Shown here: positions 5,740 through 35,078 of the stretch, piece after piece
Position numbering within the stretch: the first letter of the stretch is position 1
Layout of the letters: each line of letters opens with the position of its first letter
DNA from: Candidatus Woesearchaeota archaeon
GTDB taxonomy: Archaea > Nanobdellota > Nanobdellia > Woesearchaeales > B29-G15
Assembly: GCA_017610005.1 (NCBI GenBank)
Contig: JAFCCU010000002.1
Coordinates: forward strand, 18,118 to 82,117
Reading direction: 5' to 3'
DNA: 64,000 nucleotides
Program-made: the position numbers and the translations under genes
Notes under the pieces: model-generated
Database searches by the model: none
Told to the model about the DNA's origin: nothing
The model's input: the letters and a program-made list of their open reading frames with translations, nothing else

Positions 5740-7551
5740 ATGGGTGAGATTATTAGGCAAAGATCTTGGTTAACAATTATTGTATCAATTTTGTTATTAT
5801 CTGTTCTTCTTTATTTGATTATGTTAAATGGCTATAAAGATAACAGAATTGCAGATGCAAAAGTAATATTCTGTGAGGTGATTTTAACACCTGCAACTGA
5901 AAGAGTGTGCGAAGTTGTAACAGGAAGTAATTCTTTGCTCATAAAAGGGAATGTGCTTGACCCAGATATAATTTATCATGGGGGAGAAGTTCTTGTTGAT
6001 GAAACTGGGTTAATTAGGTATGTTGGATGTAGTGAAAACAGACCAGAAGAGCTAGATGCTATCGCATTAGGGGCAACAAAAATTGAATGTGCAGAAGGTG
6101 TTGTTTCTCCAGGGCTTATTAATTCCCATGATCATTTGAATTATAATAATTACCCCTTAGCTGAAACTGGCAAGCGATATGACCATCGCAATGATTGGAG
6201 GTCAAGTTTATCTCCTTTCCCCTATAATTCTTCTCAAGAGAAAGTAACTTGGGCAGAGATGAGACAAACAATGGTGGGCACCACTTCTATTGTAGGCTCT
6301 GGGAATACATTTGGTTTTGTTCGTAACCTTGATTCTGAAAATGAACACTGGGAGATCGTTAACCAAACTGAAATAGTCTCAGATACATTCCCTCTTGAAT
6401 CTCCTGAAGATTATATTCAAAATGATAGGGAATGTTCCCTTTACTCCAAAAAGAATAGATTGAATCCTTATCCTGGGGTTTATGTGCCCCATGTTGCAGA
6501 AGGGGTTAATGAGGCCGCTCATAATGAATTTATTTGTTTAAGTAAGGAAATTGAGAGGAATTTCGCAATTGTTCATGGAATTGCTTTAGATGCTTATGAT
6601 GGAAAACTCATTGCAGAAAGGGGAGCTTCAATAATTTGGTCACCTAGGTCCAACGTAGCCCTGTATGGCAATACTGCCCCGGTTAAAATGCTAAAAAATC
6701 AAGGGGTATTAATTTCATTAAGCACCGATTGGACTCCCACTGGTTCAATGAACCTTGGGCGGGAACTTTTGTGTGCAGATGAATTGAATAAAAAATATTT
6801 TGGCAATATATTTAATGATAGGGAATTGTGGTTAATGGTTACTTATAATCCTGCGGTAGCATTACAAATTGATGATAAACTTGGATCATTAAAACCAGGC
6901 CTTTTTGGAGATATTGTAATTTATGATGGGAGGGGAAAAGATAATCCTTACCGTGCAGTTATAGAAGCGAATGTAAAAAGCACAGTTCTTGTTCTACAAA
7001 GATCATTATTTTCTCAAGGAAATTCTGTGTATGCTGGGAGTATTGCACTTTATGGGGATTCAGAAATATTAAAGGCATTGCCAGAACATGAGATTCAGGC
7101 GCCCCGTTTTGGATTTAGCAAACCCCTTTGCGAGCTAATTTCTGTTTGTGGTGTTGAAAAGACAATATGCCCCGTAAGGGAAACTTGGTGGACTATTTTA
7201 GAAGGTCATACTCCTCTTTCTATGGATGATTTATACAAAAAGAACCAAGATTCTTATCCTTTGTTCTTTTGTGGGGAACCCATTGATGAACCTACATGTA
7301 CTCCTTTTAGGTCAGGAGAATACACTGGAATTATTGCTAATAATGATCTTGATGGAGATGGGATACTTAATATTAATGATAACTGCAAAAATATCTTTAA
7401 TCCCATAAAACTAATGGATGGTAACATCCAACCAGATGCAGATAATGATGGAATTGGAGATGCGTGTGATAGATGCCCATTGGATGCAGGCAAAATGTGT
7501 AATTCATTTAATCCCTACACAAAAGAGATAATTAATATCTTTGATGGATAA
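5740..7551 (+). CDS. Membrane-anchored amidohydrolase-superfamily protein with C-terminal thrombospondin type-3-like Ca-binding repeats
   Basis: N-terminal TM (LTIIVSILLLSVLLYLIMLNG). Metal-binding HxH motif GLINSHDHLNYNNYP typical of amidohydrolases. C-terminal DxDxDGxxDxxDNC repeats (NNDLDGDGILNINDNC, DADNDGIGDACDRCPLD). Confidence 0.7.
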   Translation: MGEIIRQRSWLTIIVSILLLSVLLYLIMLNGYKDNRIADAKVIFCEVILTPATERVCEVVTGSNSLLIKGNVLDPDIIYHGGEVLVDETGLIRYVGCSENRPEELDAIALGATKIECAEGVVSPGLINSHDHLNYNNYPLAETGKRYDHRNDWRSSLSPFPYNSSQEKVTWAEMRQTMVGTTSIVGSGNTFGFVRNLDSENEHWEIVNQTEIVSDTFPLESPEDYIQNDRECSLYSKKNRLNPYPGVYVPHVAEGVNEAAHNEFICLSKEIERNFAIVHGIALDAYDGKLIAERGASIIWSPRSNVALYGNTAPVKMLKNQGVLISLSTDWTPTGSMNLGRELLCADELNKKYFGNIFNDRELWLMVTYNPAVALQIDDKLGSLKPGLFGDIVIYDGRGKDNPYRAVIEANVKSTVLVLQRSLFSQGNSVYAGSIALYGDSEILKALPEHEIQAPRFGFSKPLCELISVCGVEKTICPVRETWWTILEGHTPLSMDDLYKKNQDSYPLFFCGEPIDEPTCTPFRSGEYTGIIANNDLDGDGILNINDNCKNIFNPIKLMDGNIQPDADNDGIGDACDRCPLDAGKMCNSFNPYTKEIINIFDG

Positions 7552-7586: not shown

Positions 7587-7609
7587 CGGGTAATTTTTCA
7601 CAGTCTAAT

Positions 7610-7733
7610 CCTCGCCTAGCTCAATGGTAGAGCGTTCGGCTGTAGATCGTTGCTCGACTGTGTTATGATAACATCGAATGATAAGCAGCCAGCCGTTACC
7701 GAAAGGTTCCTGGTTCAAGTCCGGGGGCGGGGA
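7610..7733 (+). tRNA. tRNA-Tyr (anticodon GTA) with a ~52-nt intron at the canonical 37/38 position
   Basis: Hand-folded. Acceptor CCTCGCC/GGCGGGG plus discriminator A. D-arm GCTC-AATGGTA-GAGC. Anticodon stem TTCGG/CCGAA with loop CTGTAGA. Intron ~7647-7698. T-arm CCTGG-TTCAAGT-CCGGG. Short variable loop, i.e. archaeal/eukaryal class I Tyr. Confidence 0.75.
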
Positions 7734-7793
7734 CTCATTTTCTCAGTCTGAAGATAATAGTCTGGAGTACGGAGTCTGCAGTCTGGAGTAAAT
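7704..7793 (+). repeat. Direct repeat copy 1 (tRNA-Tyr 3' third plus ~55 nt downstream)
   Basis: aggttcctggttcaagtccgggggcggggactcattttctcagtctgaagataatagtctggagtacggagtctgcag is repeated almost exactly at 7878..7957. Confidence 0.8.
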
Positions 7794-7877
7794 ATATTTC
7801 CGCCATTCTCTTTAGAGGGTTAATTCGTAGAATTTACCCGAAAGTTTGCTCCTCTGCTTTACAAAGCAGAGACTGTA

Positions 7878-7957
7878 AAGGTTCCTGGTTCAAGTCCGGG
7901 GGCGGGGACTCATTTTCTCAGTCTGAAGATAATAGTCTGGAGTACGGAGTCTGCAGT
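7878..7957 (+). repeat. Direct repeat copy 2 (duplicate of the tRNA-Tyr 3' third plus downstream sequence)
   Basis: Same ~80-nt sequence as 7704..7793. It is preceded by two strong hairpins (gggttaattc-gta-gaatttaccc and ctctgcttt-aca-aagcagag). Confidence 0.8.
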
Positions 7958-8110
7958 AAATATGTATTGAAAACTGAATTTTTCTCTCGTCTAAGCTCCC
8001 TACAGAAAGATTTATAAACAACTCCCAAATCACACAGTAGAGATGGGGCATTTTATCTTCTGAGAGCAATAACAAGTTGTTATAGTTATTAGTAGGTCAA
8101 ATGCAAACAC

Positions 8111-8248
8111 GCCCTGGTGGTGTAGTCGGACTATCATAAAGCCCTGTCGAGTTATTGGAAATGAAAATTTTCAAACACAGCAAGGCTTTGACCCGGGTTC
8201 GAATGGTTGAGTGTGAAAGCACCAACACAGAAAATCCCGGCCGGGGCG
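8111..8248 (+). tRNA. tRNA-Asp (anticodon GTC) with two introns: canonical (after the anticodon loop) and non-canonical (just after the T-loop)
   Basis: Acceptor GCCCTGG/CCGGGGC plus discriminator G. D-arm GTGTAGTCGGACTATCAT, similar to known archaeal tRNA-Asp. Anticodon stem AAGCC/GGCTT with loop CTGTCGA. Intron 1 ~8151-8183. T-stem CCGGG, loop TTCGAAT, then a 31-nt insertion (8205-8235) before the T-stem 3' strand CCCGG. Confidence 0.65.
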
Positions 8249-8264
8249 TATCCCATAATATTTT

Positions 8265-8360
8265 GGGTCGGTAGCTCAGGCTGGTAGAGCGCTTGGCTTT
8301 TAACCAAGCGGTCGCGAGTTCGAATGGTTTTAAACAACCTAGAAAATCTCGTCCGACCCA
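8265..8360 (+). tRNA. tRNA-Lys (anticodon TTT) with a 22-nt non-canonical intron just after the T-loop
   Basis: Acceptor GGGTCGG/CCGACCC plus discriminator A. D-arm GCTC-AGGCTGGTA-GAGC. Anticodon arm CTTGG-CTTTTAA-CCAAG. T-stem GCGAG, loop TTCGAAT, insertion 8326-8347, T-stem 3' CTCGT. Confidence 0.7.
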
Positions 8361-8381
8361 ATAAACGGAGTGGGCCAAAAG

Positions 8382-8618
8382 ATGGAATTTGATATAACGA
8401 AACATTCACTTACCCCCAAGCACACTAAACTTGATTCTAAAGAGGAAGAAAAGTTCTTGGAAGATACAAAATATAGAAAAGTTCACTTGCCAAAGGTCTT
8501 TTTAGAGGATCCCAGCATTCAGCATTTAAAACCTGTTGTGGGAGATATTATAAAGATTGAGAGAAAATCTCCAACGGCAGGTGTAGCTTATTTTTACAGG
8601 GTGGTCTCAGATGAGTAA
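8382..8618 (+). CDS. rpoH: DNA-directed RNA polymerase subunit H (Rpb5 homolog)
   Basis: ~78 aa with the characteristic ITKHSLTPKH ... IIKIERKSPTAG ... YFYRVV pattern. ATG at 8382; the ORF-track GTG at 8370 lies only 10 nt after tRNA-Lys. Its stop overlaps the rpoB'' start (ATGAGTAA). Confidence 0.85.
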   Translation: MEFDITKHSLTPKHTKLDSKEEEKFLEDTKYRKVHLPKVFLEDPSIQHLKPVVGDIIKIERKSPTAGVAYFYRVVSDE

Positions 8619-10098
8619 TCACGGTAGAGTATTATTAAAAAAGTATTTTGAAGAACGCTCTTTAGTTCAGTCAGACATTGATTCTTTCAACAACTTTATT
8701 GATTTTGAGTTACAAAAAATCATTGATGAAAATAAGGAGATCGTTCCAACAATTATTCCTCAGAATATTGAGGAGTTTAAAATCAAACTTGAAAAAATTA
8801 AGGTAGGCAAACCAGAGATCACCGAAGCTGACGGCAGTAAAAGGCCCATTATGCCAATTGAAGCAAGAATTAGAAAGATTAGTTATGCTGCTCCAATTTT
8901 TTTAACAGTTTCTTCTTATATTAATGGCACTCAAAGGGAATCCTTTGAAACCCAGATTGGAAAGATTCCAATTATGCTTCGTTCTAAATACTGCAATATG
9001 CATGGCTTAAAACGTGAGCAGGTTATTGAAATGGGTGAAGACCCAGATGATCCGGGAGGCTATTTTGTCATAAATGGTTCAGAAAAAGTCTTAGTAAAAG
9101 TTGAAGATTTGGCAGCAAACCATTTTATGGTTGAAAGGACTCCAACAAGCCCATCTCCATTTACAGGTAGATTATTTTCAGAACACGGATCTTATAAGAT
9201 TCTTCACAACTTTGAACGCTTAAAAGATGGAATATTCTATGTTTCATTCGTAAGATTGCAAAGAGTGCCAATAATTGTAGTTTTAAAGGCACTTGGAATG
9301 CTTAAGGATGAAGAGATTATGAAGACAGTAACATCTGAAAAAGTGCTTGATGAAGTTTACATTAATCTTTATGAGTTCTCAGATATTAAAAACAGTGAAG
9401 ATGCAATGGATTATCTTGCAAAAAAGGCAGGTATTACTCAGAGCAGGCAAATCAGACTTGAAAGAATTCAGGACATGCTTGATAGATATTTATTACCTAA
9501 CATTGGTACTGATGAAAAGTCAAGAAAATTAAAAGCCTATAACCTTTGTAAAATGATTAAGAAGTTTATCTATATTGAACGGGGTATTGTTCCTACAGAT
9601 GATAAAGATCATTACAAAAACAAAAGGATCAAACAATCAGGAGATCTTTTGGCAGACTTATTTAGGGTAAACTTGAAAGTTTTAATTAGCGACTTACTTT
9701 ACAATTTCCAAAGAATTGTAAAGCGAGGTAAGTTCCCTTCAGTTAAGGTTATTATTAGAGAAAAATTACTTACTTCAAGAATTCAAAGTGCGATGGCGAC
9801 TGGTTCTTGGGTTGGTGGAAGAAAGGGTATCTCTCAGAGAATTCAAAGAAGAAATTATCTAGATTTGCTTTCACACTTGCAAAGAGTTGTGAGTCCACTT
9901 TCAGCAACACAAGAAAATTTCAAAGCAAGAGCACTTCACCCAACACATTTAGGAAGACTTTGTCCAATTGAAACTCCAGAAGGAACAAATATTGGATTAA
10001 AGAAAAACTTGTCAATTCTTTCAGACATTACAAACAATGAACCTGAAAAAGACTTATTAAAAAAACTCAAGGAAATGGGCTTGAGTATGGTGGGATAA
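8611..10098 (+). CDS. rpoB2: DNA-directed RNA polymerase subunit B'' (N-terminal half of split RpoB)
   Basis: 495 aa; immediately followed by B'. Split B''-then-B' order is typical of archaea. Confidence 0.9.
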   Translation: MSNHGRVLLKKYFEERSLVQSDIDSFNNFIDFELQKIIDENKEIVPTIIPQNIEEFKIKLEKIKVGKPEITEADGSKRPIMPIEARIRKISYAAPIFLTVSSYINGTQRESFETQIGKIPIMLRSKYCNMHGLKREQVIEMGEDPDDPGGYFVINGSEKVLVKVEDLAANHFMVERTPTSPSPFTGRLFSEHGSYKILHNFERLKDGIFYVSFVRLQRVPIIVVLKALGMLKDEEIMKTVTSEKVLDEVYINLYEFSDIKNSEDAMDYLAKKAGITQSRQIRLERIQDMLDRYLLPNIGTDEKSRKLKAYNLCKMIKKFIYIERGIVPTDDKDHYKNKRIKQSGDLLADLFRVNLKVLISDLLYNFQRIVKRGKFPSVKVIIREKLLTSRIQSAMATGSWVGGRKGISQRIQRRNYLDLLSHLQRVVSPLSATQENFKARALHPTHLGRLCPIETPEGTNIGLKKNLSILSDITNNEPEKDLLKKLKEMGLSMVG

Positions 10099-10099
10099 A

Positions 10100-11902
10100 A
10101 TGGCAGACGTACAACTCAACGGAAGATTCGTAGGAACTGTTGCAGACGCAAAAAAGTTCGTTGAATCAATTGTTACAGAAAGAAGAGCAGGAGGAGTTTC
10201 AAAAAATGTTAGTGTTCATTATTCTCCTGAAATTGATGAAGTTCATATTGAAAACCTAGGTGGTAGGCTAAGGCGACCTTTGGCAGTGGTAAATGATGGA
10301 AAAATCTTGCTAAGCGATAAAGAGATTGTAGGGTTAGAAAAGGGATCATTAAGTTTTACTGACTTGGTTTCTCAAGGGATCATTGAATACATTGACTCTG
10401 CAGAAGAAGAAAACTCATTAGTTGGATTCTTTGATACTGAAATCACACCAGATTCAACTCATGTTACAATGCATCCGATTGATATGTTTGGGTTGACTAC
10501 AGCACTAGTTCCTTATTCAAATTTTTCAACTACCCAGAAAGTTAATACTGGTTCAAAAAACCAAAAGCAGGCACTTGGATTTTATGCTGCAAATTTTCTA
10601 ATAAGAATTGATATGGATGTAAATCTTCTTCATACTCCACAAAGACCAATTGTAAAATCAATTATGCATGATCTACTAGATTATGATTCCCACCCATCTG
10701 GGCAAAATCTTGTAGTTGCAGTTATGTCTTACAAGGGGTACAATATGGAGGATGCAATTGTTATTAACGGCGGTTCAATTGAAAGAGGCATGGGTCGTTC
10801 TTCATATTATAGACCATCTGTTGCAGAAGAACTTCGATATTCCGGAGGCCTTTTAGATGAAATCTCAATTCCTGATAAAGAAGTTAGGGGCTATAAGAGT
10901 GAAGAAGATTATAGAATGCTAGAAGAAGATGGAATTATTTATCCTGAAGCAGTTGTAAGAGAAGGGGAGGTTGTTATTGGTAAGACTTCTCCTCCAAGAT
11001 TTTTAAGTAATTTAGGAGACTACCAACTTGCAACTACTACAAGACGTGAATCTAGTGAATACTTAAAACACGGAGAAAAAGGTAAGATTGATCTTGTGGT
11101 TTTAACTGAAAATGAAGAAGGAAATAGATTAGTTGAAGTTAAAATGCGTGATGAACGTGTTCCTGAAGTTGGGGATAAGTTTACCTCAAGACATGGACAA
11201 AAGGGAGTTATTGGTTTGATTGTACCTCATGAAGACATGCCATTTACTGCAAATGGTGTTGTTCCAGATTTAATTTTCTCACCAATGGGTATTCCTTCAA
11301 GAATGACAGTTTCACATTTAATAGAACTTCTTGCTGCAAAAACTGGTGCAATGGGCGGTAGATATGTTGATGGTACTGTTTTTGATGCTGAGCCTCAAGC
11401 AGATTTAAGAAAAGAACTTGAATCTTTGGGTTTTAGAGAAAATGGAACTGAAACTATGTACGATGGAATAACCGGAAGACAGTTTCAAGTTAAAATTTAC
11501 ATTGGAGATATGTATTATCTAAAATTAAAACACATGGTTGCGAATAAAATCCACGCAAGAGCACGTGGGCCAATCCAACTACTAACTAGACAACCAACTG
11601 AAGGTAGAGCAAAAGGCGGTGGTCTAAGATTAGGAGAAATGGAGAAAGATACTTTCATTGCTCATGGAGCATCTCTCTTATTAAAGGAGAGATTTAATTC
11701 AGATTCGGCAATGGTTCCTATCTGTGAAGAATGTGGCCTTGTGGCAATTCACGATTCTTACAAAAATAGAAAGTTCTGCCCAGTATGCGGAGAGGACGGC
11801 AAGATCGAGTTTGTGGAGATGGCGTATGCATTTAAGTTGCTGCTTGACGAACTTAAGAGTTTGTGCATTTATCCAAAATTAGTTTTGGGGGACAGGTATT
11901 AA
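10100..11902 (+). CDS. rpoB1: DNA-directed RNA polymerase subunit B' (C-terminal half of split RpoB)
   Basis: 600 aa. Conserved RpoB C-terminal motifs (SRHGQKGV, GGLRLGEME) and a C-terminal Zn ribbon CEECG...CPVCG. Confidence 0.95.
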   Translation: MADVQLNGRFVGTVADAKKFVESIVTERRAGGVSKNVSVHYSPEIDEVHIENLGGRLRRPLAVVNDGKILLSDKEIVGLEKGSLSFTDLVSQGIIEYIDSAEEENSLVGFFDTEITPDSTHVTMHPIDMFGLTTALVPYSNFSTTQKVNTGSKNQKQALGFYAANFLIRIDMDVNLLHTPQRPIVKSIMHDLLDYDSHPSGQNLVVAVMSYKGYNMEDAIVINGGSIERGMGRSSYYRPSVAEELRYSGGLLDEISIPDKEVRGYKSEEDYRMLEEDGIIYPEAVVREGEVVIGKTSPPRFLSNLGDYQLATTTRRESSEYLKHGEKGKIDLVVLTENEEGNRLVEVKMRDERVPEVGDKFTSRHGQKGVIGLIVPHEDMPFTANGVVPDLIFSPMGIPSRMTVSHLIELLAAKTGAMGGRYVDGTVFDAEPQADLRKELESLGFRENGTETMYDGITGRQFQVKIYIGDMYYLKLKHMVANKIHARARGPIQLLTRQPTEGRAKGGGLRLGEMEKDTFIAHGASLLLKERFNSDSAMVPICEECGLVAIHDSYKNRKFCPVCGEDGKIEFVEMAYAFKLLLDELKSLCIYPKLVLGDRY

Positions 11903-27985: not shown

Positions 27986-29587
27986 ATGAAGAAATTTGTA
28001 TTTGTAGTCATTCTTTTTTTACTCTTTTTAACAGCGTGTGACAAAGATACAGATGGTGATGGAATTTCTGATACTGAAGATAATTGTATTGGTATTAGAA
28101 ACTCGGATCAAATAGATTCAGATAAAGATGGCTGGGGGGATCCATGCGATTTTAATGAAGATCTAAGTGAAACACTTTTATATTTTTCCGCAACCTGGTG
28201 TACTTATTGCCATGAACAGTTACCAATTATTCGAGAACTTGATCAAGACTTTCCAGATTTAGAAATTCAATATCTTGATTTTGATGCAAGGCAAGATTTA
28301 GTTAGGGAATATGGTATTGTGGGTGTGCCTCATTATGTATTTATAAAAGGAGATTGTTGGAAAAAAACAAGAGGTACAACAAGTTATTCAGAATTAGTTA
28401 ATTGGATGGGAAAGGGTGCTTGCGCAAGATCAGCAGCAGTCCGTAGCCAAGGAGTCAATTTGCAGTCTGAAGTCATAAGTCAGAAGTCACTCAAACCCCA
28501 AACCCCAAACCCCAAACCCCAAACCTTACCAACTGGTTGTTGTATAAATCCTAATGAAAATGCGTGTGTTTATTCTGATGATATTGATAAATGTTGCCCA
28601 GTAGATGGTTATGAAGAATCAATAGGACCGCAATCACAAGCTGAATGTAAAGAACATTGGTTCTTTCCCCACGCAACAGAAGAAGCATGCAGCGTAATGG
28701 ATCCATTAACTTATGAAAATGCACAATATTGTGAATTTGGGTGCTGTTGCGAGGCTACCCCCATAGGTATAGCTGCATTTGCCTCAGAAAAAATCAAGTG
28801 TAATGATTATTGGGGAAGTTATGAAGAATTAAATTGCACGGTAAATGATTGTTCTAAATTTATTGAAGGGGGGGCAACATTAAAGACTGCTTCTCGTGTT
28901 TCTCCAATGGCAACAATCTCAGTTACTCAAACAGAAGATGAAACTTGCGTTGATGAATTGTATATTTTTTGTACAGTAAATCCTTTAGCTACTGAGATAT
29001 CAAATTTACCTGCTGGCGCAATAATTACTAACAACTGCATTGAATTCACCCCCACTGAAGCCCGTAGTTATTCAATTACGTTTAGAGAGGGAGATTATTA
29101 TTCAGAGGTACTAAACTTAGAGGTAATAGACTGCTCTGATCCGCCAGTTTTAGGATTCTTGCGAAATCGGAATGTATACAAAAATCAGATATTTAGTATT
29201 AGGGTACGTGCTACTGGGACAGGAGATTTGACATATGTAGTAGAGGATATGCCTGATGATGCCAAATTCAATCCAAAAAAATTAAAATTTTCTTGGATTC
29301 CAAGAGAGGAGAACGTTGGCAAACAATATAATGTTAAATTTATTGTGATAGATTCAAATGGGAGAACTGATGAAAAAACAGTTGAACTTAATGTTAGAAA
29401 TTATTCTTTCATGTGGATAGCTGGTTTGTCATTGGCCCTTGCAGGTTTACTTTACTTAGGTGCATTATTTTCCGGATTGCTTGAATCTCTAACATGGTTT
29501 TCCTCTTCTGCATGGATATATGTTGCAGGGGCTTGTATTGCGATATCCTTTATTCTGGTCGCGCTTTATTTTCTTTCGGGATTATGA
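27986..29587 (+). CDS. Cys-rich modular surface protein D with thrombospondin type-3 repeats and a thioredoxin-like CxxC domain
   Basis: Lipobox-like signal (FLLFLTAC). TSP3 repeats DKDTDGDGISDTEDNC / DSDKDGWGDPCD. Trx-fold motif LLYFSATWCTYCHEQ...GVPHYVFI. Pro/Thr linker encoded by repeats. Signature module ~28535-28860 (GCCINPNENACVYSDDIDKCCPVDGYE...EACSVM...GCCCEA). He_PIG-like LPAGAIITNNCIEFTPT. C-terminal TMs. Confidence 0.8.
   Translation: MKKFVFVVILFLLFLTACDKDTDGDGISDTEDNCIGIRNSDQIDSDKDGWGDPCDFNEDLSETLLYFSATWCTYCHEQLPIIRELDQDFPDLEIQYLDFDARQDLVREYGIVGVPHYVFIKGDCWKKTRGTTSYSELVNWMGKGACARSAAVRSQGVNLQSEVISQKSLKPQTPNPKPQTLPTGCCINPNENACVYSDDIDKCCPVDGYEESIGPQSQAECKEHWFFPHATEEACSVMDPLTYENAQYCEFGCCCEATPIGIAAFASEKIKCNDYWGSYEELNCTVNDCSKFIEGGATLKTASRVSPMATISVTQTEDETCVDELYIFCTVNPLATEISNLPAGAIITNNCIEFTPTEARSYSITFREGDYYSEVLNLEVIDCSDPPVLGFLRNRNVYKNQIFSIRVRATGTGDLTYVVEDMPDDAKFNPKKLKFSWIPREENVGKQYNVKFIVIDSNGRTDEKTVELNVRNYSFMWIAGLSLALAGLLYLGALFSGLLESLTWFSSSAWIYVAGACIAISFILVALYFLSGL
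28461..28527. repeat. In-frame simple-sequence tract inside gene D: octamer-family units followed by (AAACCCC) x 4.7
   Basis: cagtctgaagtcataagtcagaagtcac then aaacccc x4 plus aaacc (28493-28525). It encodes QSEVISQKSLKPQTPNPKPQT. Confidence 0.85.
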
Positions 29588-31065: not shown

Positions 31066-32469
31066 GTGAAAAAAGAACTTATATATTTTTTAATGGCATT
31101 AGTATTATCTTTCTCAGTTGTTGGTGCTGGTTGTGATGGTTCAACCGGATTATGTGATGCTCCAGAAGAAGGACAAGAATGTATTTACGAAACAGATTAT
31201 GGATTTAATCTATACTTAAAAGGAACTTGTTCTGATGGGCAGATTGATCCAGTGACAGATAAATGCTCACAAGAAAGAGTGGGCGTGCCAGTTCAAATTG
31301 AAGAGTATTACTGCAATACTTACGGGCAGTGCCACATGATGCAAAAATGGTGCCCCAATGGGTGTTTAAATGGGGAATGTTTGCCTTCTGGTATACCTAC
31401 AACTTCTGCTACTCCTGGATGTTATGATGAAGATGGGGGTATTTTTTACGATCGACAAGGTACTTGCACAGATAAATTTGGAACCCACACAGAAAGTTGT
31501 GATTATGCAAAAGGGTATAGAATAACTGAATATTATTGTGTAAATGTAACTGGGGGAGATGGATGTGGGGGAGGAGTTTGTGGGGATGATGATGTTCCTG
31601 AATTCCGATGCATGGCGCAAGGCACAAGATGTAGTGGGGGTTATTGTGAGAGGGGCGCTTGTACAACTGAACTTTATATGGATAGTGCAACTCCTGGTTG
31701 TTGTTTGAACCCTAAAACAAGACCTTGTGATTATGTTTCTAATATTAGATCTTGTTGTCCTTCATCTTGGCAGGGATATGCTGCATGGGATGAACCTGGA
31801 CCAAAAGGGATATTTGATTGTGCAGCTGCTTGGTTTTTCCCTTCTGACTCTCCAGAGGCTTGTGCAGCCATGGCAGAAGCTGAGCATCCAAAAGCAGACA
31901 TGTGTGGCTTTGGCTGTTGTTGTTACAAAACTCCTAGTGATGAAATAAGGTCAGACCAACAAACCCAGTCAGAATGTACTGGCACCGATAAACAATGGGT
32001 AAATTTTGGTACAATAACTGAATGTACCCCCCAATATTGCCATGGTTACTTTGATGGGGGCACGCTTGCAGATGACCCAGATGTTCCAACCACAACTACC
32101 AGTGTGGAATACACTCCTGGCTCACCTCAAGAAGATGATGATGGGGATGGGGTAGTGAATGGGATTGATAATTGCATAAATACATTCAATTCTCAGAATA
32201 ATATTGATAATGATGAGTTTGGAGACGCATGTGATCCTGATATGGACAATGATGGAATAATAAATGAGGAAGATGAATGTCCTCTTGATATTACAAAATC
32301 AGTTAAACCTTGCAGTGACAAACAAATAGCCCCATTGTGGTTTTTGGCAGGAGGCGCATTAGCGGGATTAATTGCATCTTTTTTTATTCCTGGCGCAACA
32401 ATTATTATTGGATTGCTTATTGGTGCGATTTTAGGATTAATTGCATTATTATTGGTGAGTTCATTATGA
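31066..32469 (+). CDS. Cys-rich modular surface protein E (two CxDxDGG-type repeats, signature module, TSP3 repeats, C-terminal TM)
   Basis: GTG start. Signal MKKELIYFLMALVLSFSVVGAGC. Signature module ~31696-32050 (GCCLNPKTRPCDYVSNIRSCCP...EACAAM...GCCCYK). TSP3 DDDGDGVVNGIDNC...DPDMDNDGIINEEDEC. TM FFIPGATIIIGLLIGAILGLIALLLV. Confidence 0.8.
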   Translation: MKKELIYFLMALVLSFSVVGAGCDGSTGLCDAPEEGQECIYETDYGFNLYLKGTCSDGQIDPVTDKCSQERVGVPVQIEEYYCNTYGQCHMMQKWCPNGCLNGECLPSGIPTTSATPGCYDEDGGIFYDRQGTCTDKFGTHTESCDYAKGYRITEYYCVNVTGGDGCGGGVCGDDDVPEFRCMAQGTRCSGGYCERGACTTELYMDSATPGCCLNPKTRPCDYVSNIRSCCPSSWQGYAAWDEPGPKGIFDCAAAWFFPSDSPEACAAMAEAEHPKADMCGFGCCCYKTPSDEIRSDQQTQSECTGTDKQWVNFGTITECTPQYCHGYFDGGTLADDPDVPTTTTSVEYTPGSPQEDDDGDGVVNGIDNCINTFNSQNNIDNDEFGDACDPDMDNDGIINEEDECPLDITKSVKPCSDKQIAPLWFLAGGALAGLIASFFIPGATIIIGLLIGAILGLIALLLVSSL

Positions 32470-33659: not shown

Positions 33660-35078
33660 ATGTGCAAAATGAAAAGATTAATACCCCTGTTTATATTCTT
33701 ATTTGTAATTAGTTTTGTGTATGGTGGGACATACAATCCTCCAGCTCAAGGAATTGGGGCAATGACTTCTGCTTGGTGTATTGATGGAGATGGGCCCGAC
33801 ACTGGAGATTTTAGTACTCATCCAGATTATAGTGGAGACACAAACTGGGCCCCAGAACCAAGAAAAGTTAAAAGTTTTTGTACAAGCCAAATAGATTACC
33901 CTCATCAAAGAGAAGATTCTTGTGTTGATGGATTGTACTCTTTAATGGAATGGGAATGTACTGGCTGTGCAGGTGGGGGCAGTCAAGAATGCGATAACCC
34001 TTTAGATACTTGCGAATTTGGGTGTGTTCATGGGGCATGTTTAGATTCAAGACAAGATTTATTGAACCACATTTATGGGGCAGATAGCCCTGCTTCACTT
34101 TGGTTTGAAGGCCAGTGTAAGGATTCTGATGATCATGATGGGTTTTTATATGATAAATATGATGGAATGGATTATACCGTCCAAGGGGTCTGTGTTGATA
34201 GTAGAGGAGATGTATTTATTGATTATTGCAATAAAGGGCATTTACAAGAATATGTTTGCACTACCGGGGGAGACTGCACTCCACTTGATGAACCAGATGA
34301 TAATGAATGTGACTTGTGTAAGAATGGTAAGTGTATTACTCTTGATAAAACAGTTAGTGGATGTTGCTTAAGTGAGTTTACAACTGGGTGTGGGTATGTT
34401 GATAAATTAGATCAATGCTGTCCAGATTATGGCACTTACGCAGGTGATGATGAGACTGGTCCCACTAGCCCCGGAGATTGCCGTGATAATTATTTTTATG
34501 AAAGAGAAGATACAGAAGCTTGCAGTTTAATTCCTGATACTTTTGAAAATAAAGATTTATGTTTTAGTGGCTGCTGTTGCGATCTTGATACTGAAGGTAA
34601 TCCTCTTGGAAAGCCTTTAAAAAAAGTTGAATGTAACTTATGGCTTGCAGATGGTGTAATGGAACAATTTGGGGGATGTAATCCAGAAAATTGTTTAGTC
34701 GCATCAGGGGGGCAATCATTAATTTCAGGAGAGAGGGATAGCGATCAAGATGGGGTTAATGACGCAGAAGATAATTGTATTTATATCCCAAATCCAATAA
34801 ATGATGATGGGATCCAACTAGATTCAGATAATGATGGTTTGGGAGATGCCTGCGATCCAGATGATGATAATGATGGTATTTTGGATGTAGATGATGACCC
34901 AATAGTCCCTGAAACTTTTATGGAAAAATTATTTGCTTCAGAATCTTTCTGGGGGATACTTATTGCAATATTTGTTGTCCTTGCATTAATATTTTTTACT
35001 TCATTAACTTGGATACCAATTACCCTAATAGGTATTGGAATAGCACTAGCAGGAGTTTTAATTGAGTTTTTGGGGTGA
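33660..35078 (+). CDS. Cys-rich modular surface protein G (signature module plus TSP3 repeats plus C-terminal TM)
   Basis: Signal MKRLIPLFIFLFVISFVYG. Signature module ~34359-34700 (GCCLSEFTTGCGYVDKLDQCCPDYGTY...EACSLI...GCCCDL). TSP3 DSDQDGVNDAEDNC...DSDNDGLGDACDPDDDNDGILD. Confidence 0.8.
   Translation: MCKMKRLIPLFIFLFVISFVYGGTYNPPAQGIGAMTSAWCIDGDGPDTGDFSTHPDYSGDTNWAPEPRKVKSFCTSQIDYPHQREDSCVDGLYSLMEWECTGCAGGGSQECDNPLDTCEFGCVHGACLDSRQDLLNHIYGADSPASLWFEGQCKDSDDHDGFLYDKYDGMDYTVQGVCVDSRGDVFIDYCNKGHLQEYVCTTGGDCTPLDEPDDNECDLCKNGKCITLDKTVSGCCLSEFTTGCGYVDKLDQCCPDYGTYAGDDETGPTSPGDCRDNYFYEREDTEACSLIPDTFENKDLCFSGCCCDLDTEGNPLGKPLKKVECNLWLADGVMEQFGGCNPENCLVASGGQSLISGERDSDQDGVNDAEDNCIYIPNPINDDGIQLDSDNDGLGDACDPDDDNDGILDVDDDPIVPETFMEKLFASESFWGILIAIFVVLALIFFTSLTWIPITLIGIGIALAGVLIEFLG

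Follow-up and report, generated by a model that had tools for sequence, protein, structure and literature searches.

Archaeal tRNA introns are described in terms of a motif known as bulge-helix-bulge (BHB): a 4-bp helix lies between two 3-nt bulges, and the first two anticodon bases fall within that helix (PMC4090602). Introns also occur away from the canonical site, and position 59/60 is among the listed non-canonical positions. The presence of canonical and non-canonical introns together in one tRNA, and the existence of relaxed BHB variants, are likewise already published (PMC4090602). For the DPANN archaea, the available text of Kaneta et al. 2018 (PMC5829648) describes: raised numbers of disrupted tRNA genes, including in one Woesearchaeota genome (RBG_13_36_6); an EndA that bears an L3 insert, is often alpha4-type and is linked to a marked rise in disrupted tRNA genes; and a larger number of non-canonical and multiple introns in cases where EndA has a specific insert in a loop, implying broad substrate specificity. 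The same text notes that incomplete DPANN tRNA sets point to undetected disrupted genes.

The window analysed here, meaning the whole 64,000-nt stretch of DNA, has a GC content of ~35% and comes from a Woesearchaeota (DPANN) host. It contains a tRNA-Asp and a tRNA-Lys gene that each carry an insert in the T-loop. The folding, geometric and comparative data suggest, with a probability of roughly nine in ten, that both inserts are archaeal protein-spliced BHB introns located between tRNA positions 59 and 60. The two genes would thus be examples of the undetected disrupted tRNA genes anticipated for DPANN archaea.

Results

Organization of the tRNA cluster

Positions 7600-8620 of the forward strand hold three tRNA genes in the order Tyr(GUA), Asp(GUC) and Lys(UUU), followed by rpoH (Table 1). 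The tRNA-Lys gene starts 16 nt past tRNA-Asp and stops 22 nt short of the rpoH ATG. Downstream of rpoB' are rpoA', rpoA'', L30e, NusA and S12.

Table 1. Coordinates of the tRNA cluster, its introns and the adjoining polymerase genes in the window
Feature	Position	Strand	Basis or remark
tRNA-Tyr(GUA), first in the Tyr-Asp-Lys cluster	7610-7733	+	Rfam 50.1 bits; ARAGORN intron mode
Canonical tRNA-Tyr intron, 52 nt	7647-7698	+	no T-loop intron in the window tRNA-Tyr
tRNA-Asp(GUC), three exons, no encoded CCA	8111-8248	+	spliced fold; ARAGORN after T-loop deletion
tRNA-Asp exons	8111-8149 (positions 1-37), 8183-8203 (38-59), 8235-8248 (60-73)	+	
Canonical 37/38 intron of tRNA-Asp, 33 nt	8150-8182	+	perfect hBHBh' motif
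Predicted T-loop intron of tRNA-Asp at 59/60, 31 nt, TGGTTGAGTGTGAAAGCACCAACACAGAAAA	8204-8234	+	BHB geometry, covariation in relatives
tRNA-Lys(UUU), two exons	8265-8360	+	spliced fold; partial Rfam match; ARAGORN after deletion
tRNA-Lys exons	8265-8324 (positions 1-59), 8347-8360 (60-73)	+	
Predicted T-loop intron of tRNA-Lys at 59/60, 22 nt, TGGTTTTAAACAACCTAGAAAA	8325-8346	+	BHB geometry, fold
rpoH, syntenic anchor for fetching orthologous loci	8383-8618	+	ATG at 8383
Split rpoB	rpoB'' 8611-10098, rpoB' 10100-11902	+	directly 3' of rpoH

Two further features of the window were recorded. The closest TATA-like box 5' of tRNA-Asp, TTTATAAA, is ~95 nt off (window 8011-8060), and 3' of it lies a segment, ATGGGG(C/T)AT(T/C)TTATCTTCTG, that is conserved in the window and in the closest relative, locus L001 (L001 2398-2450). 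This conservation suggests that tRNA-Asp is preceded either by a leader that is long and conserved or by some small element not yet annotated. Several large open reading frames (5740-7551, 27986-29587, 31066-32469 and 33660-35078) encode amidohydrolase or thioredoxin domains in combination with thrombospondin type 3 repeats (Pfam TSP_3), and several open reading frames that adjoin them have no Pfam match at all.

In-silico excision of the inserts restores the tRNA fold

Removal of 22 nt from the tRNA-Lys gene (8326-8347, or equivalently 8325-8346) leaves a 73-nt tRNA-Lys(UUU) that adopts the cloverleaf as its minimum-energy fold; the stems have 7/4/5/5 pairs. Removal of the 33-nt and 31-nt inserts from the tRNA-Asp gene leaves a tRNA-Asp(GUC) with 7, 3, 5 and 5 pairs in the acceptor, D, anticodon and T stems, respectively. 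The lone unpaired position of its D-stem is U13.U22, a mismatch that is usual for archaeal tRNA-Asp.

The behaviour of tRNA-finding programs parallels these folds. As long as the inserts are present, ARAGORN calls no tRNA anywhere in the window, and its intron mode finds neither the Asp nor the Lys gene; both are reported once the two T-loop inserts are deleted at the coordinates of Table 1. Above threshold, Rfam recovers tRNA-Tyr alone, and tRNA-Lys appears as a partial match of 24 bits over its 5' two-thirds. No intron-free alternative fold emerged from ARAGORN in default and intron modes or from Rfam at gathering and E-value thresholds. A preliminary description of this DNA had held that tRNA-Asp folds only without its 31-nt T-loop insert, that tRNA-Lys likewise needs 22 nt removed, and that tRNA-Asp also has a canonical 33-nt intron. 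The cloverleaves and the ARAGORN calls, obtained only after excision, bear out the first two statements, and the perfect BHB at the canonical junctions bears out the third.

For the T-loop-spliced Asp gene, ARAGORN offers the label 'tRNA-Ala(agc)', which arises by sliding the canonical intron. This label was rejected on several grounds: the BHB register of the canonical intron supports GUC; orthologues without that intron fix the anticodon as GTC by reading contiguous CTGTCGA (L001); and, alongside a G73 discriminator and an Asp-type D-arm, the gene contains C3-G70 and not the G3.U70 required for Ala identity.

Position and geometry of the predicted T-loop introns

The exon upstream of each T-loop intron ends in ...TTCGAAT and both introns end in ...GAAAAT, and this AAT repeat leaves four equivalent registers for the junction, 57/58 to 60/61. 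The register was derived from the geometry of the canonical intron within the same tRNA-Asp gene. There, C32-U35 (8144-8147, CUGU) pairs with ACAG (8177-8180) in a 4/4 central helix, and the two bulges are 8148-8150 (C36-G37 and the first intron base) and 8181-8183 (the last two intron bases and A38). The anticodon stem provides a 5-bp outer helix, and an inner helix of at least 3 bp leads into an inner hairpin. As the canonical intron fits the BHB geometry perfectly, the register used for the T-loop is validated. In this framework, 59/60 in the T-arm is the structural counterpart of 37/38 in the anticodon arm.

In both T-loop introns the outer helix is the 5-bp T-stem, and U54-G57 is opposed to intron positions -6 to -3, giving three UUC:GAA pairs and a G57.A mismatch. 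Two exact 3-nt AAU bulges complete the motif: A58-A59 and the first intron base form the 5' bulge, and the last two intron bases and U60 form the 3' bulge, with a splice site in each. For tRNA-Asp, U54-G57 (8198-8201) faces AGAA (8229-8232), the bulges are 8202-8204 and 8233-8235, and the inner hairpin spans 8205-8228, its helix consisting of G:C, GUUG:CAAC and a GUGU:GCAC hairpin. For tRNA-Lys, U54-G57 (8319-8322) faces AGAA (8341-8344), the bulges are 8323-8325 and 8345-8347, and the inner helix is GGUU:AACC; this motif has one extra unpaired U facing the 5' bulge. Compared with shuffled sequences, the whole precursors fold far more stably (z = -4.0 and -4.3). In the minimum-energy fold of the Asp T-arm, UUC:GAA is left unpaired within a 6x6 internal loop.

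A script that scored every junction-equivalent register returned 59/60 as the best. Inspected by hand, registers 57/58, 58/59 and 60/61 each give at most 1-2 central-helix pairs. Relatives with unambiguous boundaries also put the T-loop junction at 59/60. The junction had initially been placed at about 60/61; the BHB geometry and the unambiguous relatives move it one base to the left. Judged by their predicted pairing, both window T-loop introns are slightly relaxed BHBs, with a BHB-like motif at each junction and a central helix of 3/4 plus G57.A. Given such BHB-like, non-canonical junctions, splicing in the host would have to accept sites that are non-canonical and slightly relaxed, in agreement with the earlier proposal of a processing system that accepts them.

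Orthologous loci and covariation of the junction

A search of genome assemblies with RpoB'' yielded 80 loci, the best of which, L001, has 86% identity; most have 57-68%. The labels of many name Woesearchaeota or Nanoarchaeota, and those of many others 'uncultured Methanosarcinales archaeon'. The exact RpoB'' protein of the window has no entry in the assembly index. The mature Asp and Lys sequences were aligned to the region upstream of rpoH in each locus by a spliced-alignment script, and in a refinement of these alignments raw Lys placements at query 40-46 were reassigned to canonical 37/38 introns. The order Asp-Lys-rpoH is conserved. tRNA-Asp was recognised in 68/80 loci and tRNA-Lys in 64/80 (69 and 65 genes with the window), and splicing in silico gave fully paired stems in every scorable orthologue, despite differing stem sequences. 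By this comparison, in which the same genes recur across related loci and splicing restores their stems, the T-loop inserts are real, far past what chance would give.

The number of introns per gene varies from 0 to 3, and the sites used are the D-loop, 30/31, 37/38, 53/54 (once) and 59/60. With the window included, the 59/60 intron is present in 37/69 Asp genes and 17/65 Lys genes, with lengths of 14-131 nt; four relatives have T-arm introns in tRNA-Tyr. Introns at this place had been described as rare and restricted to a few archaeal lineages, but in this lineage, to judge by the frequency among these orthologues, they are not rare. In L073, L074, L076 and L078 (57-58% RpoB'' identity), the most distant loci with both genes recognised, Asp and Lys are intron-free, which argues that intron proliferation was limited to a subclade.

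Compensatory change keeps the proposed junction helix intact. Of 54 59/60 introns (52 from relatives and the 2 of the window), 41 have a 4/4 central helix and 13 a 3/4 one; pairing percentages are somewhat inflated, as ambiguous junctions were assigned to the best BHB register, and the 25 introns with unambiguous boundaries agree (4/4 in 22). Covarying examples include TCCA:TGGA, TCCG:TGGG, TTCG:CGGA and TTCG:CGAG. For the 41 junctions that differ in sequence, this best-register assignment leaves 97% of cells paired, versus 21-61% with the 3' strand slid by 1-3 columns. Two of the four pairs vary on both sides, and the covariation score is reached by 0/500 shuffles. The pair 57:intron(-6) is AU in 18 cases, GC in 8, GU in 6 and unpaired in 9. 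The G57.A variant found in the window recurs in 7/54 introns, which suggests that relaxed sites are tolerated in the lineage.

Several other introns were noted in these loci. About 13 relatives (for example L005, L006, L022, L032 and L045) have a D-loop intron in tRNA-Lys after G19, with a 4-bp GCCT:GGGC helix that is HBh'-like; these D-loop introns have no adjacent outer helix. Lys 30/31 introns with full BHB motifs are present in L002 and L025, and the Lys 53/54 intron in L036. In L061, 100 N (~1985-2084) fall exactly at the expected tRNA-Asp 59/60 intron; either this sequence was masked or the scaffold has a gap there.

The tRNA-Tyr gene and its repeat

A canonical intron of 48-75 nt is present in 20/20 tRNA-Tyr genes found (the window and 19 relatives), including those of the distant genomes in which Asp and Lys are intron-free. 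The central helix of its BHB is just 3/4 in both the window and L001, with a mismatch at U33; a conserved ...AAGCAG(C/T)CAGC(C/T)G... within the intron offers an alternative pairing with C29-G34. The L001 tRNA-Tyr (2215-2370) contains both the canonical intron and a 31-nt T-loop intron ending in AGAAAA. The window tRNA-Tyr is without the latter, and intron presence thus differs between the window and L001 at 86% RpoB'' identity.

The final 32 nt of the window gene, from about position 43 to A73, together with 49 nt of downstream flank, make up a perfect 81-nt direct repeat (7702-7782 and 7877-7957, at a distance of 175 nt). The 94-nt spacer between the repeats (7783-7876) is unique, with no match in the 80 relatives, and L001 has no duplication of the tRNA-Tyr 3' part. 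The spacer and second repeat were considered as a second tRNA; the fold is cloverleaf-like (z = -2.2) but has no valid anticodon loop or BHB. The repeat could be a scar of integration or excision or a pseudo-tRNA, or could have arisen by tandem duplication or as an artefact of assembly.

Alternative readings and the origin of the two introns

Two other readings would dispense with BHB splicing of the T-loop inserts, and both are very improbable. One holds that the Asp and Lys genes are pseudogenes in which disruptive inserts are retained, with functional copies elsewhere in the genome. The failure of standard tRNA finders to detect either gene, and the fact that only 64 kb of the genome is in view, would suit such a situation, but the exons are intact, the stems are perfect and there are no further lesions. 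Moreover, the Asp-Lys-rpoH order, the intron position and the compensatory junction changes are kept across dozens of species, and conservation with compensatory change across species is not expected under neutral decay. DPANN genomes are also small and typically have single tRNA gene copies, which counts against functional copies elsewhere. Slightly less credible again is removal of the inserts by a route other than BHB splicing, such as self-splicing, or their origin as assembly artefacts. The same architecture in dozens of independently assembled genomes rules out the artefact. A self-splicing route could draw on the imperfection of the window BHB (the G.A mismatch) and on the occurrence of group I introns in archaea, noted in the available part of PMC6125680; against this, inserts of 22 and 31 nt are far below the size of group I or group II introns, they have no match among the Rfam families, and the junction helix covaries as a BHB. 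Protein-spliced BHB introns are thus the preferred reading of both inserts.

A different matter, compatible with the BHB mechanism, is where the two introns came from. From their position and their similar ends (GGTT ... AGAAAAT), the preliminary description proposed transposition or duplication. Copying between Asp and Lys, by transposition or gene conversion and followed by internal insertion or deletion, is a possible origin of the window pair, though a rather doubtful one. The 3' ends carry little weight here: over the 54 introns the last six bases are [T 33, C 11, A 8] G53 A44 A50 A50 [G 34, A 17], with the consensus [T/C]GAAA[G/A], and the shared ...AGAAAA(T) can be attributed to pairing with the near-invariant T-loop UUCR together with the bulge bases. 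Accounted for by this structural constraint, the conspicuous common end is no evidence for common descent and need not reflect it. The 5' ends are less easily set aside. Both introns begin with TGGTT, and a shared prefix of at least 5 nt occurs in just 8/1431 pairs, the other 7 of which involve the same tRNA gene across relatives. In a statistic that combines the prefix after the first intron base with positions -12 to -7, leaving BHB-constrained bases out, the window pair ranks 8/1431. This end-focused statistic was devised after viewing the data, and the shared bases amount to 4 + 4, GGUU on one strand of the inner helix and CAAC on the other. When the unconstrained intron cores are aligned locally, the score is 8 and the rank 706/1431, the median. 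As a hint of common descent, the shared 5' TGGTT is only suggestive. A metagenome scan for GTTCGAATGGTT N(5-35) AGAAAATC (TGGTT...AGAAAA after GTTCGAA) gave 71 matches, none of them a tRNA; T-stem-like pairing was present in 7/71, of which at least 5 related ones lie in apparent protein-coding sequence.

What copying can look like in this lineage is seen in a relative, L068. Its 59/60 introns in Asp (92 nt, ~2455-2548) and Lys (89 nt, ~2637-2727) are ~88% identical over ~85 nt, and the exons differ. To judge by this identity, L068 clearly represents intron copying between neighbouring Asp and Lys genes, so the process occurs in the lineage. A precedent from further afield comes from Thermoproteales, for which intron transposition has been documented (Fujishima et al. 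2010, as referred to in the available text of PMC4033280). L001 has 59/60 introns in Asp, Lys and Tyr, all with sequences unrelated to those of the window, and the canonical Asp intron is absent from it. Intron sequence thus turns over fast, and any likeness between introns within one genome would have to be recent. For the window pair, then, copying is conceivable in light of TGGTT and L068, and it is unproven, with core similarity at the median and an AGAAAAT end that is constrained.

Discussion

Proposed splicing of the precursors

If both inserts are BHB introns, the precursor would use the T-stem as outer helix, U54-U55-C56-G57 would pair with AGAA, and the remainder of the intron would form the inner hairpin. 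By analogy with known archaeal tRNA splicing, EndA would cut in both bulges (PMC4090602), an RtcB-type ligase would join the exons, and CCA, which is not encoded, would be added post-splicing. tRNA-Asp would need two independent excisions. EndA cleavage leaves a 2',3'-cyclic phosphate and a 5'-OH. With U54-G57 engaged by the intron, neither the T-loop nor the D-loop/T-loop elbow that depends on it would be able to form before splicing. Among the scanned open reading frames of the 64-kb window, there is no Pfam match to EndA (tRNA_int_endo) or RtcB.

Implications

With ARAGORN, or with the Rfam tRNA model at its gathering threshold, tRNA-Asp and tRNA-Lys would look missing from this genome. Inferences of genome completeness and codon usage in DPANN archaea hinge on recognising such intron-bearing genes. 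The window also provides a clear further case of relaxed non-canonical BHB sites in Woesearchaeota. If the junctions are read as above, the Woesearchaeota endonuclease must have broad specificity, even though DPANN enzymes are reported to be alpha4-like. The epsilon2 EndA, of ARMAN-2, is reportedly also associated with disrupted DPANN tRNA genes.

The set of ~70 orthologous loci constitutes a natural experiment on intron gain, loss and copying: the number of introns per gene ranges from 0 to 3, 59/60 is a hot spot, and one copy between neighbours is unambiguous. One speculative interpretation, a long shot, is that within a large Woesearchaeota subclade the 59/60 intron is long-lived and selectively maintained in particular tRNAs (Asp in more than half of the species, Lys, and in the T-arm of some Tyr), with fast sequence turnover and occasional copying between neighbours. 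Such maintenance could be functional, for example by interrupting integrase attachment sites in the T-arm/3'-end. Two observations fit the attachment-site idea anecdotally: in the window, tRNA-Tyr is the only tRNA without a T-loop intron and the only one with its 3' part duplicated; and in L001, tRNA-Tyr has a T-loop intron and no duplication.

Comparison with known systems

The closest described counterparts are the non-canonical introns of Crenarchaeota/Thermoproteales (PMC4090602), with which the window introns share the 4-bp helix, the two 3-nt bulges, the 59/60 position and the presence of a canonical 37/38 intron in the same gene. At 22-33 nt, the window introns are also within the 11-129 nt range reported for known archaeal introns (PMC4090602). 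The differences from the Crenarchaeota/Thermoproteales introns are threefold: the host is a low-GC Woesearchaeota; 59/60 is a hot spot in the orthologous Asp and Lys genes of many Woesearchaeota species; and the window motifs carry the G57.A mismatch.

The disrupted DPANN tRNA genes associated with EndA inserts, as presented in the available text of PMC5829648, belong to the same superphylum as the window host. That survey includes one Woesearchaeota genome and, in the portion available, describes neither the 59/60 hot spot nor the variation of 0-3 introns among orthologues that the loci compared here reveal. With regard to copying, the transposed introns of Thermoproteales (PMC4090602 and the available text of PMC4033280) are near-identical introns in different tRNA genes, and the L068 pair is alike in this respect. 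The likeness of the window pair, in contrast, comes down to a few end bases. As the L068 genes are adjacent, transposition is no more plausible there than local gene conversion or unequal recombination. In the literature searched, there was no account of a Woesearchaeota-wide 59/60 hot spot in Asp and Lys, nor of copying between these neighbours. Nothing in these comparisons overturns current understanding; the window introns extend a known framework.
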